A DNA stretch of 64,000 bases from Bdellovibrionales bacterium (GTDB lineage Bacteria; Bdellovibrionota; Bdellovibrionia; Bdellovibrionales; UBA1609), in the NCBI GenBank assembly GCA_965197855.1, contig OZ240230.1, positions 960,153 to 1,024,152 of the forward strand. Direction: 5' to 3'. Shown here in pieces: positions 7,048 through 58,124 of this stretch (positions are counted from its first letter, which is position 1; each line of letters starts with the position of its first letter). Below the pieces are notes generated by a model. That model had not been told where the DNA came from. It was given only the letters and a program-made list of their open reading frames with translations, and made no database searches. The translations under genes were made by a program, and so were the position numbers.

Positions 7048-8231
7048 TCCTTCTTTAGAGTTTGTCTGTATAACATAGGGTTAATAATGAGACTGGCAAG
7101 ACTGGTACAAATTAAAATAGAAAATATTCTGGAATCCACATATCCTTTGGAAAAAGCTATTTCTGCAACAATTAAATCCAAAGTGCCTCTAGAGTTCAAA
7201 GCAATTCCTACTTGGCTGGATTCTCTATTAGTAAAGCCGGACCACTTGGCTCCCATCCCAGAGCCAAAAATTTTAGAAGTGTAAGCGACCCCCATAATAG
7301 AAAGTAAAAGAGCAGGCTGATCAAAAGCTTCCACTGAAAAATAGAGCCCAATGGAAGCAAAAAATATGGGAGTTAAGAATTGATCTGTAATAGAATTTAA
7401 AGTTTTTGTCATGGATTCAAAGGCGCCCATGCCAATAATGTCTTTGTTTAAGAGAAGTCCTCCAAAGAAAGCTCCGATAATGAAGTGAAACCCTAAAGCT
7501 TCTGTAGCTGTGCTAAAAAGTAAAACAAAAACTACCCCTGCACCGAAAATAGCTTCTTCTCCTACATAACTAATGAGTTTTGAAATAAAATTTTTCGATT
7601 GAGGAGTGCTAAGCAATTCAGATCTTAAAAATTTATTTACTAGCATCACAACTATAAAGAACAACACCATGCCTGCCATTTTTGAACTAATAATTTTAAA
7701 AAACACTAGAGGACTTTGTATATGTTCAACATTTAGGATAACCCCTAAAAATAGAAGAACCATTACATCTAAAATAACAGAAGCCCCCATAATGGTATGT
7801 CCCATTTTAGTATCTATAAAATTATAATTACTCATAAATCGAATCACTATAGGGAGGGCTGTAATGGAAAAACATAAGCCCAATATAATGGAAGCAAAAA
7901 ATGGCAAATCCCAAAAGTAGCCAATACCCAATCCGGATAAAAAAGAGAAAATGAAACCTGTTAGAGAACAAAACAATGCTTTTTTACGAATAGCTCCAAA
8001 AATATCTTGTAGATTCATTTCCAAGCCTGCCGCAAAAATCATTAAAAAAATTCCCAACTCTATAATGCCGTTAAGTTCTTTTGAAGGAGTGACTGCATTA
8101 AATACAGTAGGACTCAGAAGTAGACCGGCTAGTATTTCTCCAATGACTGTAGAAAATCCAATAGATTTAAACAAACGCCCTAAGAGCCGTGCACAAGCCA
8201 AAAGCAGGAGAAGATGGGTAATAATATTCAT
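7026..8231 (-). CDS. cation:proton antiporter (Na+/H+ exchanger / Kef-type membrane domain)
   Basis: 401 aa, about 12 hydrophobic helices; N-terminus ...ARLLGRLFKSIGFSTVIGEILAGLLLSP typical of the CPA2 family. Confidence 0.8.
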   Translation of the reverse strand: MNIITHLLLLLACARLLGRLFKSIGFSTVIGEILAGLLLSPTVFNAVTPSKELNGIIELGIFLMIFAAGLEMNLQDIFGAIRKKALFCSLTGFIFSFLSGLGIGYFWDLPFFASIILGLCFSITALPIVIRFMSNYNFIDTKMGHTIMGASVILDVMVLLFLGVILNVEHIQSPLVFFKIISSKMAGMVLFFIVVMLVNKFLRSELLSTPQSKNFISKLISYVGEEAIFGAGVVFVLLFSTATEALGFHFIIGAFFGGLLLNKDIIGMGAFESMTKTLNSITDQFLTPIFFASIGLYFSVEAFDQPALLLSIMGVAYTSKIFGSGMGAKWSGFTNRESSQVGIALNSRGTLDLIVAEIAFSKGYVDSRIFSILICTSLASLIINPMLYRQTLKKDGAQGQT

Positions 8232-8269
8232 ATATTATGAGCATCATAAAAAAAAATGCTCTTGTCTAT

Positions 8270-9403
8270 CTAAGAATATAAATATCGCCTTATAGAAACA
8301 GAAGAAACCAAACCAAGAGTAATAAAAGTGGTGATTGTATTGGATCCACCGTAAGAAAGTATGGGTAAAGGCACTCCTACAATTGGTAAAAGTCCTATGG
8401 CCATATTAATATTAATGATGGTATGCCAAAAGATAATAGATAAGGCTCCTAGGCATAAATAAGTTCCTACTTTATCTCTGGATTCAGAAGCAATTTGGAA
8501 AATTTTTAAAATCAGTATTAGAAAGACAGCTGCAGTAAATAAACTGCCGGCAAAACCATGCTCTTCACTGAGAACACTAAAAACGAAGTCTGTATGCCTT
8601 TCAGGCAGAAATTCCAGTTGAGCTTGTGTACCCTGTTGGAAGCCTTTTCCAAAGATCTGACCGCTTCCTATGGCAATTTTGGATTGAATTGTATTATATC
8701 CAGCTCCATGAGGATCTTTATCAGCTGACATGAACATTAAAACTCTGGTTTTTTGATAGTCTTTTAAAACAAAAGTCCATAATGTAGGAATAAAAATAAT
8801 AAATAGAGCGAAAAAGGCAATCCATAAATTTCGATTCATTCTTAAAAATAAAGCAACTGTGCCTCCTTGAATGCCAATAAGGAGAGCTGTGCCTAAATCA
8901 GGTTGATACACAATAAGCACCATTGGCAGAGCAGTGAGTAAAACAGCTCCAATAATTTGCCTAAATCCATAAACGTATTGAGTGGACTTTTTTGAAAATA
9001 TAGAAGCCAGCACACAAATAAGAGCTACTTTCATTGTTTCTGAAGGTTGATAAGAAAACCAACCAAAATCAAACCACCTTTGTGCTCCATGAGAACTTTG
9101 TCCTACAAACAAAACAGCCACCAAGGCCAGAATGTTTACACTGTAAAAGAAATAACTGAAACGGCAGAAAAATTGATAATCAATAGCCGAGAGAATAAAA
9201 AATATTAAAAATCCTAATGTGATCCATAAAACTTGTTTCCAGAAAACTGAAATAAGAGGAGAAGAGGCCGTATGAGTAATGCTGTAAAAATTTATAAGGG
9301 CAAGTAGAGTGATGAGGCCAATAATAGTTAAAAATTGAAAATTCAATTTTGAATACCAATGAGTGTCTGTATAATCGCTATTGACGTTTTTATAAGGAGC
9401 CAT
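8270..9403 (-). CDS. rodA: peptidoglycan glycosyltransferase RodA (SEDS family)
   Basis: FtsW/RodA/SpoVE-like polytopic protein directly after mrdA; start chosen at MAPYK (AAGGA Shine-Dalgarno), whereas the ORF track extends to 9487. Confidence 0.9.
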   Translation of the reverse strand: MAPYKNVNSDYTDTHWYSKLNFQFLTIIGLITLLALINFYSITHTASSPLISVFWKQVLWITLGFLIFFILSAIDYQFFCRFSYFFYSVNILALVAVLFVGQSSHGAQRWFDFGWFSYQPSETMKVALICVLASIFSKKSTQYVYGFRQIIGAVLLTALPMVLIVYQPDLGTALLIGIQGGTVALFLRMNRNLWIAFFALFIIFIPTLWTFVLKDYQKTRVLMFMSADKDPHGAGYNTIQSKIAIGSGQIFGKGFQQGTQAQLEFLPERHTDFVFSVLSEEHGFAGSLFTAAVFLILILKIFQIASESRDKVGTYLCLGALSIIFWHTIININMAIGLLPIVGVPLPILSYGGSNTITTFITLGLVSSVSIRRYLYS

Positions 9404-13890: not shown

Positions 13891-15048
13891 ATGAGATTGT
13901 TGCTTATTTATCTAGCATGTTTATTTGTAGTTGGATGTAGTAGTGGAGGCTTTGTATTTAACGATACGAAAGAGCTTGAAGATAATGTAGATATGGCATT
14001 GCTTTCTTCATTGGAAGATGAAGGTGATGTAGCTCCAGCATTGGATGTGGACTCTGGTGCGAAAGCCGAAAACTCTGAAGATTTAGCCGCATCAGAAACA
14101 AATCAAAGTAATGATGATAAACCAACAAGATCATTCGGTAAAAGAAGATCTAAAGGTGATGATGGTAAACCAAAAAGATCATTTGGTAAAAGAAGATCTA
14201 AAAGTGATGATCTAGTGGCAAAACCTGAAACAGTTCAAGTGCCTGAAGAAGTTATTGTAGATATAAATGATAAAGTGGATATTCTATTTGTAACTGATGG
14301 TAGTTTTTCTATGAGAGAAGTTCTTAGAAATATTCCTGAGAGAATGGATGGATTTATACCTGCCTTGGATTCTTTAAATTGGAGAGCTGGATTTATTAGT
14401 GCTCATGTAAAAAATAATAAAGACAAAGAACTTTCTTCTATGGAAATCGATGGAGCTATTGTATTGGAAAGAAAGTATATTACAAAAGGCACTGTTTCAA
14501 ATGAGAGAATTTTTATAGATACTTTAACAAGGAATAAGGGACGAAAAAGATGTGCATTTTCTCCAGAATGCGGTGGATTTAAGGAAACACCTCTTTTAGC
14601 TTTAAATGAATACCTTATTTCTCCCAGCAGGTCTGTCGAAACTGGAACTCATCTGATTCGAGAAGATGCTCATTTGGCGGTTGTGATTGTGACAGATAAC
14701 AGAGAAAATAAAAGACAAGGGCAAAGAGTAACATCAGATGAAGTAATAAATACTATTCAGCAGGAGCTTGGTGAAGATAAAGAATTTTCTGTTCATGTAT
14801 TGACGACAATGAATGACGCTTGTCAAGGGCAGTTGAGAGATGAATACTTCTTTGCAGAGGGCAATCGAGCTCCAGAGATGCTTTTATTAGCTAGAGAAAC
14901 TGGAGGAGCTAGTTTAAGTCTTTGTTCGCATGATTATGCTATTCCATTGGCGGAAGCTATTCAGAAAAGTGTTTTAGGCGAGGAAGAAGTGGACTGTAGT
15001 GCTTGTACAAATGCAAGTGTTATCTCAGATCAGGACAAACAAGTATAA
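13891..15048 (+). CDS. lipoprotein with vWA-like domain and basic tandem repeat
   Basis: Lipobox LFVVGC after GGAGGG Shine-Dalgarno; MIDAS-like DGSFSM in VDILFVTDGSFSM; ORF track start 13876 is probably too early. Confidence 0.6.
   Translation: MRLLLIYLACLFVVGCSSGGFVFNDTKELEDNVDMALLSSLEDEGDVAPALDVDSGAKAENSEDLAASETNQSNDDKPTRSFGKRRSKGDDGKPKRSFGKRRSKSDDLVAKPETVQVPEEVIVDINDKVDILFVTDGSFSMREVLRNIPERMDGFIPALDSLNWRAGFISAHVKNNKDKELSSMEIDGAIVLERKYITKGTVSNERIFIDTLTRNKGRKRCAFSPECGGFKETPLLALNEYLISPSRSVETGTHLIREDAHLAVVIVTDNRENKRQGQRVTSDEVINTIQQELGEDKEFSVHVLTTMNDACQGQLRDEYFFAEGNRAPEMLLLARETGGASLSLCSHDYAIPLAEAIQKSVLGEEEVDCSACTNASVISDQDKQV
14113..14211 (+). repeat. in-frame tandem repeat (45 + 48 bp) encoding DDKPTRSFGKRRSKG / DDGKPKRSFGKRRSKS
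   Basis: Two adjacent near-identical units read directly in the sequence. Confidence 0.85.
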
Positions 15049-18821: not shown

Positions 18822-19391
18822 TTAATATGATTTGTCCATGGGATGCAACTTAATTTTCAAAATCCATCCAATAGTTTGCTGAGGGGTTTTGATTTGAATC
18901 CATTCTTTTGAAGTTTTTAGTTGCATCACCCAGCCTCCTGGAGCAAGAGAGAATAAAACAGGGGAAGATGTATTGGGTGCCGTATGAGCTGTGGTCTCTT
19001 CAAGGATGGTTATGCGCGGGATGTGACGATAAAACGAAAAACCAAAGTGTATCACTAAGCATAAGCAGAAAAATACAAGTTTGCTGATACTCATAGAAAA
19101 GAAAAGAAGAAGAAGGCTTAAGGCAATAAGAGAGAGAAAGACTTCAGAAGGGATGAGCATCCAAAAAGGAGGAGAGTGTTGTAATTGATCAAGAGCTTTT
19201 TTAGCCGGTCTGAACCAAGGATCTGATTGCAGAGCTTTTCTAAATAAAGCTATAGCTTTGAATTTTTCTTGAGAGTTATAGTGTTGAACTCCTTGATTGT
19301 ACAACTTTACAGCTTCTTTATTGGTAGGGAAATTCAAATTGGCGTTTGAAAAAAAAGCTCCAAATATAAGGAGAATCAGTAAAAATTTCAT
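18822..19391 (-). CDS. TPR plus SH3-like membrane protein (BatE-like)
   Basis: Signal peptide, one TPR-like unit, two TM helices, C-terminal SH3-like segment (GGWVMQLKTSKEWIQIKT). Confidence 0.45.
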   Translation of the reverse strand: MKFLLILLIFGAFFSNANLNFPTNKEAVKLYNQGVQHYNSQEKFKAIALFRKALQSDPWFRPAKKALDQLQHSPPFWMLIPSEVFLSLIALSLLLLFFSMSISKLVFFCLCLVIHFGFSFYRHIPRITILEETTAHTAPNTSSPVLFSLAPGGWVMQLKTSKEWIQIKTPQQTIGWILKIKLHPMDKSY

Positions 19392-27883: not shown

Positions 27884-29338
27884 TTATTGAATTTCAAAAT
27901 TTCTAGATTCGCTCGCTTTTTTTAGCCAGTACTTTGCTGTTTCGTCATCTATCTCCGTGGTTTCAATCCCATTATGATAAAAGACACCTACAATAGCTTG
28001 AGCCTGTGGATCTCCTTGTTGTGCCGCTTTTTCATACCAATCAAGTGCTTCTTTGTAATTTTGTTCAACTCCTTTACCACTGTAATACATTCTACCTAAG
28101 TATCGCTGAGCTTCAATATGCCCTTGTTTTGCCGCTTTTTCGAACAAATCCAAGGCTTCTTTATAGTTCTGTGTAATGTAATTAATTAAAGCTAGAGTAA
28201 ATTGAGCCTGTGGATATCCTTTTTCTGTAGCTTTCTCAAGATAATTTAGTGCTGTTTTGATATCTTGAACCACACCTTTACCAGCATAATACATAATACC
28301 AAGAACATAAAGAGCTTGAGCATATCCTTGTTTTGCGGCTTTTTTATACCAATGAATTCCTGTTTGCAGGTCACTATGAGTCTTGTAATGAATAGATCCA
28401 AGAGTTAGTTGAGCTTCAGGGTGCCCTCCTTGTGCCGCTGTTTCCAGCCATCTAAGGCCTTGCATTTTATTTTGTGTAATGACTGTTTCAACATATTTAC
28501 CCTTATAATAAGCGGTTCCAAGTTGATGTTGGGCATAAATATGACCTTGCTGTGCCGCTTGTTGAAGCCAATGCAAACCAGAAGTGACTTCACCTGCCAG
28601 CAACAATCTATGTCCAGCCATATATTGTGCATGAGGGTGTCCTTGCTCTGCACGTTTTATTATTTTTTGTATCTCTTCTTGTACAGATTTTTCATGATTG
28701 CTGTGTGGCTTCGTATTTACATTGTTAAGGATATTTTGGATATGCCTTAATTGTACTGTATAAACAAATCCATCGTTTACAGTGGTTACCACTCCAACTA
28801 TTTGGCCTTGTTTGTTAAATGCAGGACTGCCGCTTGTTCCATCGAGAGAGGAATAATAATTTAGAGGAATAGAATCGAAATATTTAAATTGCTTGATGTT
28901 CCCTGTGTTTGTCATCTCTGTAAATTCCCCTTCGGGGTATCCTGAGACAAATAAAGGCTCGCCTATTTTCGGAAGACGATTTCCAAGAGTTAAGTATGAA
29001 TCGACAGATGGACCCACTTCTAAAACAGCTAAATCATTTTCAGCATCTAAGGCTAAGGTTCGTTTTATTTGTATTGGATTAGCTTTGTCTATTTGTGGTT
29101 GTGATAGAGTGATATCTTCCATACTTCTAGCATTTTCTATAACATGAAAATTAGTGATAACTTGTTGAGGATTTATAACAAAACCAGTACCAATTGTTTT
29201 TTGTATTCCAGGTGTAGAGGGTGTAAAACTAAGTTGACAAATTGCAGATCTGATTCGTTTTTGAGTTGGAGGCTCTGCTTTTCCAAAAGCAGGGATACTA
29301 AATAAAATAAAAAGCAATATGATTTCTTTTATATTCAT
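27884..29338 (-). CDS. secreted trypsin-like serine protease fused to Sel1 repeats
   Basis: Signal peptide; His (ITNFHV), Asp (NDLAVLEV), Ser (DGTSGSPAF); then about 6 Sel1 units (e.g. AAQQGHIYAQHQLGTAYYKGKYV). Confidence 0.8.
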   Translation of the reverse strand: MNIKEIILLFILFSIPAFGKAEPPTQKRIRSAICQLSFTPSTPGIQKTIGTGFVINPQQVITNFHVIENARSMEDITLSQPQIDKANPIQIKRTLALDAENDLAVLEVGPSVDSYLTLGNRLPKIGEPLFVSGYPEGEFTEMTNTGNIKQFKYFDSIPLNYYSSLDGTSGSPAFNKQGQIVGVVTTVNDGFVYTVQLRHIQNILNNVNTKPHSNHEKSVQEEIQKIIKRAEQGHPHAQYMAGHRLLLAGEVTSGLHWLQQAAQQGHIYAQHQLGTAYYKGKYVETVITQNKMQGLRWLETAAQGGHPEAQLTLGSIHYKTHSDLQTGIHWYKKAAKQGYAQALYVLGIMYYAGKGVVQDIKTALNYLEKATEKGYPQAQFTLALINYITQNYKEALDLFEKAAKQGHIEAQRYLGRMYYSGKGVEQNYKEALDWYEKAAQQGDPQAQAIVGVFYHNGIETTEIDDETAKYWLKKASESRNFEIQ

Positions 29339-55285: not shown

Positions 55286-55777
55286 ATGAAATCAGAAGGC
55301 AGTTATTTTTATTCTTCTCCTATTGGGGTATTAGAAATTCAGTTGAAAGGAAATAAGCTTTACTCTATATCACAAGTACGTTCTCATACCACTTCTAGAA
55401 AAGGAAAATTTTCTGCATTAAAAAGTACAGGCACAATTCCTCCCCTTATTTTATCATTAGTGTCCAGCTTGAATGATTATTTTTCCGGAAAGAAAATAAA
55501 AACATGGCAGATTCCTCTCTATCCTCAAGGAACTGCTTTTCAAAAAAAGGTTTGGAAATACTTAAGTCAAATCTCTTATGGGGATCGTTGCACTTATTCA
55601 AAAGTGGCTCAGGCTATTGGTTCTCCCAAGGCTTTTCGGGCTGTGGGTTCAGCTTGTGGGAAAAACCCCTGGTTGATTTTAGTTCCCTGTCACCGTGTGG
55701 TTAGCCAAACAGGCTTGGGTGGTTTTGCCTTGGGGTTAAAAGTCAAATCCAGACTTCTCAATTTAGAATGCCACTGA
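55286..55777 (+). CDS. ogt: methylated-DNA--protein-cysteine methyltransferase
   Basis: Active-site PCHRVV, upstream YSKVAQAIGSPKAFRAVGSACGKNP. Confidence 0.9.
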   Translation: MKSEGSYFYSSPIGVLEIQLKGNKLYSISQVRSHTTSRKGKFSALKSTGTIPPLILSLVSSLNDYFSGKKIKTWQIPLYPQGTAFQKKVWKYLSQISYGDRCTYSKVAQAIGSPKAFRAVGSACGKNPWLILVPCHRVVSQTGLGGFALGLKVKSRLLNLECH

Positions 55778-55860
55778 AGAAAGTTTTATTTTGGAAATGA
55801 TGACTGCTCTTTGAAGGGCTAAACATCCAAGGCCATTTTAGTCCTATACTATATTTTTTC

Positions 55861-55888
55861 TTGTATTCGTCAAAGTGACGAGTATAAT
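55861..55888 (+). promoter_or_regulatory. sigma70-like promoter with operator-like palindrome in the spacer
   Basis: TTGTAT, 16-nt spacer, TATAAT; spacer contains CGTCA-AAG-TGACG (55868-55880). Confidence 0.4.
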
Positions 55889-56043
55889 AAGAATTATGAC
55901 AACTAAAAACATAATGCCAGGGCTATTTTGGATTGTGGGGAGTGTTGAGGATGTTCCTGAAGTTTTAAAAAGAATGCGGCGGACTATCTTAGAAGATAGG
56001 CCTTCTTTTTTAAGAAATATTTAAAAACTCCAATAGGGTAAGT

Positions 56044-56355
56044 ATGAAAAAATATATTTTATTTGTTAGTATTCTTTGTTCTTACAGCTTTGGACATGAG
56101 ACTCAAGCTGAAAAGGATTGTTTGGAGGCTGATTTATTAAATATAAGAAATACTACTCATATTAACTGGGTGATGAAGTATAAAAGTAATACTATGGAAG
56201 AAATGAAAAATTTTGCTGATGAAAGAATGGAAGTAACCCAAAGGTTTAAAGAAAAAAAAATAAACCATGAAACTCATTGCAAAAAACTTCTTGATATATC
56301 AAAAAAAGAATCTGAACACTTTACAGTAGTTTTTAAACCCATGCGGCCAGAATAA
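56044..56355 (+). CDS. small secreted hypothetical protein
   Basis: 103 aa; signal peptide MKKYILFVSILCSYSFG; lies inside the ogt-duplication insert. Confidence 0.45.
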   Translation: MKKYILFVSILCSYSFGHETQAEKDCLEADLLNIRNTTHINWVMKYKSNTMEEMKNFADERMEVTQRFKEKKINHETHCKKLLDISKKESEHFTVVFKPMRPE

Positions 56356-56364
56356 CATATTGTA

Positions 56365-56459
56365 TTCCCTGTCACCGTGTGGTTAGCCAAACAGGGTTGG
56401 GCGGTTTTGCTTTGGGCTTAAAAACCAAGTCTCATCTTCTTAGCTTGGAATGCCATTAA
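56365..56459 (+). pseudogene. orphan duplicate of the ogt 3' end (last 30 codons plus stop)
   Basis: 78/95 nt identical to 55683-55777, first 31 nt perfect; reads PCHRVVSQTGLGGFALGLKTKSHLLSLECH stop, with no start or upstream ogt sequence. Confidence 0.85.
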
Positions 56460-56470
56460 ATAAGTTTTAT

Positions 56471-57400
56471 CTACCTAGTATAGGGAGCAGATGTTCTATG
56501 GCTGGATTCACCTTCTCGTTCTCTATATGGCCTATATAGCTCGTAATTTCGAGCTTCCAAACTTTTCCTTGCTATTTGTATGATTTTTGGAACTCTTGAC
56601 ATTTTTGCATATTCATAACCATCTACAAGTCTTCCATGAACGAAAGATTCCACATATCCTGAAGGCCTGAACCTTGCAACTCTAGCAGTAAAACTAGTTC
56701 TTTTAATTTTCAGATCACTTTGAATAGCTAAGATCCAAGGGGTTTGTTTATCATTGTTTTTTTCATCTATAAATCTATTCCGTAAATGATCTCTGTCCAT
56801 TGGTTCGAAACCTACATGTTTCAGGGTCATAGAAACCCCGTTTGCAAAATATACTTTTATAGCAATATGAAGAGGATTATGTTCGATACTAACTCCTCCT
56901 GTTCTTTTCTTTGTACGTGGGTTAAATCCTAATTCTAAGAAAAATATTAACTTTTCAATATCTTTTTCATAGGCGGCTACTTGAGGCGGAGACCAGCCAA
57001 GAGGCATCCATTTTTTCTGATGTTCTTTAGAGATGGGATTATCTGGAAGGGCGGAGTGATCAAAACGAATGGTCTTTAAAAAGGGAAAATTCTCTACAAT
57101 TTCTATCATCTCTTGATAGTTGTTATCCTGAAAGGCTTTGAGAAAATTTTTTTCAGCTTGTTCTTTTTTTGCTTTTGTTGATCGTGGAGCACGGTTGTTG
57201 GAAGTTCTATGAGTCTTAGAAGACTTATTTTGGACAGAAGGAGGAGAAGTTGTAGTGAAGGCATAAAGATCTTCAGAAAACAACTCTTCTTGTACCGCTA
57301 AAGACTGTTGGCATGTTTTGTTACTTTTCGCCCCTGTAAACAAAAAGAGGCAAGAAACAACAAAGATCCCCATTTTAAAAATCTTAAATTTTCTTTTCAT
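56471..57400 (-). CDS. secreted protein with ankyrin-like repeats
   Basis: Signal peptide; segments PPQVAAYEKDIEKLIFFLELGFNPRTK and NPLHIAIKVYFANGVSMTLKHVGFEPMDRD resemble ankyrin units. Confidence 0.45.
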   Translation of the reverse strand: MKRKFKIFKMGIFVVSCLFLFTGAKSNKTCQQSLAVQEELFSEDLYAFTTTSPPSVQNKSSKTHRTSNNRAPRSTKAKKEQAEKNFLKAFQDNNYQEMIEIVENFPFLKTIRFDHSALPDNPISKEHQKKWMPLGWSPPQVAAYEKDIEKLIFFLELGFNPRTKKRTGGVSIEHNPLHIAIKVYFANGVSMTLKHVGFEPMDRDHLRNRFIDEKNNDKQTPWILAIQSDLKIKRTSFTARVARFRPSGYVESFVHGRLVDGYEYAKMSRVPKIIQIARKSLEARNYELYRPYREREGESSHRTSAPYTR

Positions 57401-57976: not shown

Positions 57977-58050
57977 AATGTACTCCCTGCTCTTTGTCCT
58001 TCCTGAGAGATAGGTAACAGAATATACCGCATAGGTACACTTTTTTGATG

Positions 58051-58124
58051 TCGGGGAGACAGGATTTGAACCTGCGACCCTCTGCTCCCAAAGCAGATGC
58101 GCTACCAGACTGCGCCACTCCCCG
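58051..58124 (-). tRNA. tRNA-Pro(TGG), CCA not encoded
   Basis: Reverse complement CGGGGAGTGGCGCAGTCTGGTAGCGCATCTGCTTTGGGAGCAGAGGGTCGCAGGTTCAAATCCTGTCTCCCCGA folds as a cloverleaf with anticodon loop TTTGGGA. Confidence 0.92.

Follow-up and report, generated by a model that had tools for sequence, protein, structure and literature searches.

Insertions into the 3' end of a housekeeping gene are exemplified by the cryptic prophage e14 of Escherichia coli, which, like phage 21, sits in the 3' end of icd and leaves a pseudo-icd fragment behind (Hill et al. 1989, via PMC6379469); in the account of PMC6379469, e14 is about 15 kb long, has its own integrase and excisionase, and supplies icd with a new end. 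A further comparison is offered by the cis-mobilizable elements (CIMEs), which are decayed streptococcal integrative and conjugative elements (ICEs) or integrative and mobilizable elements (IMEs), still with attL and attR but devoid of integration and transfer genes (PMC5704250); tandem accretion of elements at the end of a target gene is also on record (PMC5704250; PMC7563491). Here we describe a locus comparable to both in a stretch of 64,000 nucleotides, hereafter the window, from an uncultured Bdellovibrionales bacterium (assembly GCA_965197855.1, contig OZ240230.1, positions 960,153 to 1,024,152 of the forward strand). The genome of the window (G000) is a single contig of 1.40 Mb with 35% GC. 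The gene concerned is ogt, for a methylated-DNA-protein-cysteine methyltransferase, whose 3' end is present twice, as copies A and B, on the two sides of a small cassette. The reading that we favor, as somewhat probable, is that the two ends are attL-like (copy A) and attR-like (copy B) scars of a 682-bp insertion lacking a recombinase in the last 31 codons of ogt, similar to e14/icd and to CIMEs, which was later exchanged by homologous recombination.

As far as PMC6379469 describes the e14/icd system, the likeness to it extends to several features: an insertion lies in the 3' end of a housekeeping gene that is kept whole by a duplicated end, the displaced end persists at the far side as an in-frame untranslated fragment with mostly silent differences, and if the DNA from one repeat to the other were deleted, the gene would function again, with a few conservative substitutions. 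By the same source, e14 differs in having its own integrase, whereas the ogt unit measures 682 bp and has no recombinase, and in that the e14 element supplies the gene end, whereas copy A of ogt belongs to the host gene in the transfer that can be traced. On these comparisons the locus would belong with the e14/icd type of insertion scar at a gene end, its recombinase having been either lost or absent from the start. We found no description of ogt as an attachment site (a literature search aimed at ogt itself was not run).

With CIMEs the locus shares att-like repeats, derived from a gene 3' end, that flank a cassette without recombination genes, and in one relative (contig L029) an abiE cassette stacked behind a truncated copy B resembles accretion. 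It differs in that the ogt cassette is far smaller, has no known transfer functions or oriT and seems to have spread by homologous recombination, and in that neither a cognate ICE or IME nor an integrase with the ogt end as target was found in the genome, the genus or the order. Another parallel is offered by hotspots of defence islands or flexible genes that lie between conserved core genes and a tRNA gene and are exchanged through homologous recombination in their flanks, since the cargo of the interval between ogt and a tRNA-Pro gene differs from relative to relative and the tree of the cassette is incongruent with that of its flanks; however, replacement between flanks duplicates no flank, whereas here the end of ogt is duplicated and the duplicate seemingly acts as an anchor for recombination.

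The duplicated end of ogt and its native context

The ogt gene (55286..55777, + strand) is intact and encodes 163 aa. It is identified by PF01035 over residues 84-161 (E 5e-29) and by TIGR00589 (106.8 bits), and homologues with 78-83% identity are present in the genus. Its last 31 codons constitute copy A. A repeat search recovers a direct repeat of 104 nt (55683-55786 versus 56365-56468; 81% identity, spacing 682) and, just as the original prediction had it, the final 95 nt of ogt (55683-55777) are present a second time at 56365-56459. Alignment likewise bears out its count of differences: 31 of 31 bases are identical, followed by 17 differences in 64 nt including the stop codon, and the translations, PCHRVVSQTGLGGFALGLKVKSRLLNLECH and PCHRVVSQTGLGGFALGLKTKSHLLSLECH, differ at three of 30 residues (V/T, R/H, N/S) and both terminate in a stop. 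The similarity extends about 13 nt beyond the stop (AAGTTTTAT). We accordingly divide each copy into a core and a post-core part. Core A (55683..55713, + strand) encodes (V)PCHRVVSQTG, including the active-site cysteine, and is the same 31 nt as core B (56365..56395, + strand), at which the similarity to ogt starts abruptly, 9 nt past the stop of a 103-aa gene. The post-core part of copy A (55714..55790, + strand), inclusive of the ~13 nt of similarity past the stop, bears what we term a V-type end (KVKSRLLNLECH, then the stop), and that of copy B (56396..56468, + strand) a T-type end (KTKSHLLSLECH, with the stop at 56457-56459 and the post-stop similarity). The frame of copy B is intact; a start codon and the upstream part of the gene are absent from it. 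In the whole genome of 1.40 Mb these are the only two occurrences of the core.

The post-core parts of A and B differ at 16 of 61 nt, with pS 0.50 and pN 0.08 over 30 codons and no difference inside the core. Since these differences are almost all silent, both copies evolved within functional ogt genes, as had been predicted, and diverged under purifying selection as the ends of working genes. The core calls for a separate account. A run of 31 matches is expected by chance with a probability of about 0.002 at 82% identity and of 6e-5 at 73%, and in all other lineages of the genus 3-5 of the 31 positions differ from the core of G000; therefore, its perfect identity probably reflects a crossover or conversion specific to G000, beyond what coding constraint alone would yield. 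An assembly artefact was considered and is ruled out, the copies being 19% different and the same layout being present in an independent assembly (L029). A genome-wide self-BLAST for further duplications of the 3' ends of protein genes gave, of the candidates that were checked, ogt as the sole clear case; the remaining near repeats were internal protein repeats or non-coding. Five diverged repeats of ~100 nt within a 484-aa ORF (window 27977-28475, - strand) form an internal protein repeat; a 48-nt tandem duplication with 90% identity lies within a 390-aa ORF (window 14105-14200, + strand).

The position of copy B can be read from the relatives, which are uncultured Bdellovibrionales known as metagenome-assembled genomes. 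In G001, the closest relative at the genome level (ogt 78% identical), 6 nt separate the stop of ogt from that of a convergent gene for a 394-aa protein, which is a homologue of the 309-aa gene that follows copy B in the window (56471..57400, - strand). This 309-aa gene, convergent with ogt, would be the native right neighbor of the ancestral ogt end, and its stop is 11 nt from copy B. Since copy B abuts it as the end of ogt abuts its homologue in G001, comparison of the two loci shows copy B as the original end of ogt, cut off from its gene but still in the native place; the 682-bp unit from core A to core B is therefore an insertion relative to G001. Thus the target gene is intact, the displaced end stands at the far side in its native context, and G001 provides an empty site. 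G002 and G003 have different neighbors downstream of ogt and no second ogt end, and the insert is missing from all three of these genomes. The uninterrupted ogt with an end of the copy-B type that had been sought in relatives is present in G001, where it abuts the homologue of the 309-aa gene, and also in L044/P0017. The original prediction had held against itself the case of an old tandem duplication, with copy B decaying in relatives and no empty site; what we found is that copy B does degrade in three relatives, yet the empty site exists in G001.

The neighbors of ogt are themselves labile. Very fast evolution marks the 309-aa protein, whose N-terminus is hydrophobic: it is 42-56% identical to the 394-aa homologue of G001, with large indels, and all that is left of its gene is a 91-aa remnant in L030 and a shorter one in L031. 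Between its GltS-like gene and ogt, G001 (L032:2947-3942) has an extra gene for a 331-aa protein, again with a hydrophobic N-terminus; as neither the window nor L029-L031 have this gene, the left side of ogt is variable too.

Content of the insert

The DNA between the repeats (55778..56364, + strand) comprises 587 bp with 30.7% GC and occurs once in the genome, which settles the question whether further copies lie elsewhere. The absence of a recombinase, noted in the original prediction, is upheld by the profile searches: the only ORFs are a relic of 42 or 49 aa and an orphan gene for 103 aa, and neither has a match in Pfam, NCBIfam or PADLOC. Comparison with the relatives shows the insert, in sequence terms, as a reduced cassette with a promoter of the abiEi type, a dead abiEi start and an orphan gene for a secreted-type protein. 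AbiE systems are toxin-antitoxin operons for abortive infection and consist of AbiEi, an antitoxin and regulator, and AbiEii, a nucleotidyltransferase of the PF08843 family. The likeness to them lies in the promoter and the ~10 codons that follow it, which have homologous counterparts at the abiEi genes of L029, L031 and L052; the difference is that only the promoter and start survive, now before an unrelated orphan gene. In profile searches, neither AbiEi nor AbiEii (PF08843) was found among the ORFs of the window.

The promoter-like element (55861..55888, + strand) consists of TTGTAT (55861-55866), a 16-nt spacer and TATAAT (55883-55888), and the spacer contains an inverted repeat, TCGTCA-AAG-TGACGA. 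It had been put down as a strong promoter, and this holds in so far as the element is conserved in seven aligned copies across the relatives and its -10 hexamer is perfect; the -35 hexamer, however, matches at only three of six positions, hence it is not called by a consensus scan. Three of the seven copies precede abiEi genes of AbiE modules (L029, L031, L052), and a search of the genome found the motif nowhere else in it. In the window (55850-55900) and in the aligned copies an ATG stands 7-8 nt past the -10 hexamer. The transcript of this abiEi-type promoter is suggested to be leaderless or nearly so, and autoregulated. In L030 and L031 the promoter is joined directly to the 103-aa gene.

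In the window the two are separated by a 42-aa ORF (55896..56024, + strand; 49 aa if read from a GTG at 55875), which begins as an abiEi start and passes into unrelated sequence. Its start aligns with the starts of abiEi genes, about 10 codons being common to them before the sequences diverge. It has no match in Pfam or PADLOC, and a BLASTP comparison with AbiEi and AbiEii of L029 was empty, by which it is rejected as a fragment of either at the protein level. In L029 the ATG is changed to AAG and 57 nt are deleted, and in L030 and L031 the stretch is absent. The 42-aa ORF, listed earlier as a possible gene, is thus not conserved and is best taken as a dead abiEi start.

The 103-aa ORF (56044..56355, + strand) fared better. 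Among 5.8 billion proteins it has only three homologues, with 76-84% identity, all encoded directly behind ogt; its pN/pS of about 0.4 and two invariant cysteines argue for a real gene, as had been proposed. Its product has a hydrophobic, signal-like N-terminal segment (mean Kyte-Doolittle hydropathy of +1.8 over residues 4-16) and is predicted to be of a secreted type. A fold predicted with AF2 reached a pLDDT of 67, which is low confidence, and Foldseek gave no hit in the PDB at E<=0.001.

The original prediction had counted the insert as the third of its kind in the window. The other two small elements, of ~180 nt and situated behind ssrA and tRNA-Arg, encode no protein, and the protein-coding insert shares with them only A/T-rich words of <=12 nt. 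A relationship to these mini-elements is thereby ruled out, and it is not a third case of the same kind.

The cassette in relatives and its exchange between lineages

The cassette is known from four lineages only, always at ogt. The order cupin, GltS-like gene, ogt and 103-aa gene is common to L029, L030 and L031. The insertion at ogt that had been predicted is therefore real but not private to G000, the same cassette and junction recurring in three relatives. The junction of cassette and copy B reads TAAYATATTG..TTCC in both G000 and L029, and alignment of the loci shows it as common to G000 and all three other lineages. Beyond the junction the lineages differ. In L029, copy B is 39 nt long with 82% identity, contains two indels and has a further cassette, with abiEi and abiEii, stacked behind its truncated end; 60-nt direct repeats with 93% identity (L029:6403-6462 and 8221-8280) bracket this module. 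The copy B of both L030 and L031 is strongly decayed, partly deleted and joined to the remnant of the 309-aa gene. The left-end word ATCCCGTAAAGATT marks the abiE module in both L029 and L031, and in the latter the module interrupts that remnant. Pattern scans of metagenomes for the conserved cassette word and for the T-type end gave no match.

To the right, tRNA-Pro(TGG) (58050..58124, - strand), which also lies behind the cassette in L030, marks the limit of a variable interval beginning at the ogt stop. The cargo behind ogt in other relatives includes Eco57I-type and helicase genes (L045/L046), a trypsin-like protease with AbiEi_3 (L050), and AbiE, a HinP1I restriction-modification system, a HEPN/Toprim gene and a 193-aa fragment of a PF00589 integrase (L052). 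Thus, by its gene content, the interval from the ogt stop to tRNA-Pro is a variable, defence-rich hotspot. The island of L052, which also has an rve fragment, is 7.9 kb long and lies ~0.7 kb behind ogt. It is flanked by direct repeats of 136 nt with 90% identity (L052:11235-11370 and 19122-19257) that begin like the 3' end of tRNA-Pro (GGAGACAGGAG), so that the repeat used by this integrase island is tRNA-Pro-like and different from the ogt end. These repeats may be related to tRNA-linked structured elements of the G000 genome. No copies of the tRNA-Pro 3' end were found between ogt and tRNA-Pro in the window.

The history of the cassette is at odds with that of its flanks. GltS and a background intergenic region agree in making G000 the outlier and in placing L029 nearest to L030. 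Identity at third positions between G000 and L029 is nevertheless 90% in the 103-aa gene versus 65% in GltS and 65% in ogt, whereas between L029 and L030 it is 77% in the 103-aa gene, 76% in GltS and 71% in ogt. Intergenic DNA behaves in the same way: within the cassette the identity is 88% for G000-L029 and 68% for L029-L030, and in the background it is 77% and 84%, respectively. A cassette that merely evolves slowly is ruled out, as L029 and L030 diverge equally in cassette and flanks, whereas G000 and L029 do not. This conflict between the trees shows movement of cassette alleles between species, with at the least one horizontal exchange between the lineages of G000 and L029.

The edge of the exchanged tract can be placed with informative sites in the trio G000, L029 and L030. 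Ten sites in 55683-55777 follow the flank tree and four the cassette tree, and in 55778-55905 the numbers are two and 22. The breakpoint thus lies sharply at the ogt stop codon, away from the 31-nt core, which is what would be expected of a homologous crossover at the end of a conserved coding sequence. Gene conversion from B to A as the cause of the divergence of copy A from L029 is rejected, since only two of the nine differing sites match copy B. These counts also bear on the prediction that the element brings its own replacement end: the geometry and the fact of insertion agree with it, but copy A follows the flank tree by 10:4 in the traceable transfer, which contradicts it for that event.

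Copy B tells a different story. T-type ends occur in full-length ogt genes of G001 and P0007 (KTKSRLLSLESH) and of P0017/L044 (KTKFHLLSLECH). The closest to copy B is the ogt end of L044, with nine differences in the 61 post-core positions, a pN of 0.03 and no indel; two of these differences are nonsynonymous, over 69 nonsynonymous sites. The dS of the cassette between the pairs (G000, L029) and (L030, L031) is 0.30-0.35. Had copy B been neutral since these pairs split, about 10 nonsynonymous changes would be expected, and the Poisson probability of <=2 is ~0.003, on few sites and with the neutral rate taken to equal the synonymous rate. As copy B is intact and matches the allelic type of L044, we infer that the copy B of G000 was trapped fairly recently, after the main cassette lineages had split. 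Two features of L044 itself may be recorded: an in-frame TAA near the 5' end of its ogt (L044:1160-1220), which makes it either a pseudogene or the product of a sequencing error in a short JGI contig, and a resemblance of the first ~45 nt downstream of ogt, where the contig ends, to intergenic DNA of the cassette (72% over 32 nt).

The copy B of L029 bears synonymous variants of the ogt of L029 itself and not of the copy B of G000. Hence, one shared junction is joined to different, host-like ends in different genomes, and the post-core part of copy B would therefore have been taken up or exchanged later than the founding event, through a crossover in the core. The G000-specific, perfect identity of the cores agrees with a crossover of this kind or with a short tract of conversion.

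Origin of the duplicated end

The abrupt left edge of copy B, shared between genomes, together with the att-flanked integrase island of L052, makes a founding site-specific integration with later reduction the most economical origin. The duplication would first have arisen as a larger element integrated through a crossover inside the conserved stretch coding for PCHRVV; this element would probably have been a defence island with an abiE module. It would then have lost its recombination genes to become a CIME-like relic, and the structure would later have been spread or refreshed by homologous recombination anchored in the conserved ogt end or ends. In the case of L029 the left crossover would have been at the ogt stop; in that of G000 a crossover or conversion in the 31-nt core would have joined the cassette to the still-functional ogt end of another allelic type, the present copy B. 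Were the two cores to recombine, the cassette would be lost and ogt would remain whole, with the end of copy B.

A number of observations weigh against this proposal. There is no PF00589 gene in or beside the insert, and the four in the genome, two of XerC/D size and two of ~400 aa (415 and 400 aa), are all ~30 kb or more away; nor does the genome contain a third copy of the core that might represent attP. An ogt-end fragment stands beside ogt in no other genome of the 41 relatives or of the 221 genomes of the order, and a family of ogt-specific integrases is therefore unsupported; a dedicated integrase for the ogt end likewise finds no support in these searches. Copy A groups with the host gene and not with the cassette in the G000-L029 transfer, contrary to what is predicted for a site-specific element with a replacement end of its own, a test that covers this one traceable transfer and not the founding event. 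The 5' part of the G000 ogt is 83.5% identical to that of L030, which has a V-type end, versus 77-79% to lineages of the T-type, and for this reason either end may be native to the G000 lineage. Further, apart from G001-G003 the relatives are single metagenome contigs, some with ~2x to 3x coverage, the dating of copy B has the limits stated above, and copy B may be a pseudogene as old as the split of the G000 and L029 cassettes.

Several of these points would be natural if no recombinase had been involved from the outset, which we hold to be a real but rather doubtful possibility. DNA of a relative, circularized or linear, with an ogt end and the genes downstream of it, would have entered by RecA-type recombination, either in a Campbell-type single crossover or in a double crossover with the leftover ogt fragment of the donor as right arm, and the duplicated end would be the homology that was used. 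This is consistent with the failure to find an integrase of fitting specificity in the genome, the relatives or the order, with the breakpoint of the G000-L029 exchange at a conserved coding end, as for homologous crossovers, and with the length of the repeats (95-104 nt) in the most conserved part of ogt; a copy B that is of the T-type in G000 and background-like in L029 at a common junction would fit repeated capture of the recipient's end. Yet the first duplication would still depend on illegitimate joining or on an intermediate in the form of a circle, crossovers are inefficient when confined to 31-40 nt of homology, the homology of copy B begins at one and the same base in G000 and L029, as at the boundary of an element, and the att-flanked island of L052 shows that integrases have been active in the interval. 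At the other extreme, the 682-bp unit might be an active non-autonomous mobile cassette, whether a CIME or a miniature integrative element, that excises as a circle and re-integrates into the ogt core by means of one of the two ~400-aa integrases. The perfect cores flanking it, the intact frame of copy B, which would make excision harmless, the 415- and 400-aa PF00589 ORFs and the patchy distribution among species agree with this; we nevertheless consider it improbable, given that the unit occurs once in the genome, and always at ogt in the four lineages known, that copy A is not inherited along with the cassette, that the decay of copy B in the three other lineages implies sites that are not maintained, and that an attP-like third core is absent.

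Far less credible again, and indeed contradicted, is the view that the ogt end was duplicated locally in tandem, together with the DNA downstream, and that divergence and the gain of genes in between followed. The repeats are indeed direct and close together. Against this, the 16 differences in 61 post-core positions are nearly all synonymous and amount to a distance as large as that between any two of the genus's species, a silent divergence that is impossible for an untranslated duplicate; copy B matches another allelic lineage (L044), and the DNA between the copies is unrelated to the sequence downstream of ogt in G001.

Beyond the question of origin, the duplicated gene end might itself serve as a vehicle, a conjecture that we regard as unlikely, if somewhat less so than an active mobile cassette: a cassette with an ogt end on the left and the leftover end on the right would enter related genomes by homologous recombination without a recombinase. 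If so, pairing of the left arm would take place in ogt and that of the right arm with the ogt core of the recipient, and each arrival would trap the functional end of the recipient as a fresh copy B. This would account for the intact copy B of foreign type in G000 and the copy B of background type in L029 at one junction, and would amount to a recombinase-free, self-renewing spread of small defence or effector cassettes between species.

The host belongs to an uncultured Bdellovibrionales lineage with small genomes, and the scar by itself is small, its cargo being an orphan protein, predicted to be secreted, with no assigned family. It is of wider interest in that one locus gives a natural series, from an empty site through a fresh duplicate and a frameshifted and truncated duplicate to one that is nearly erased, which shows how the gene-end duplications of hotspots arise, decay and are re-made. 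It also presents a case of promoter capture, with a promoter of abiEi now before an unrelated gene. Under the favored reading, in which the founding event was an integration, later exchange would be possible by homologous recombination at a gene end without a dedicated recombinase. If the recombinase-free spread conjectured above is real and extends to similar cases, it would matter for the movement of defence and effector cassettes in genomes with few mobile-element genes.

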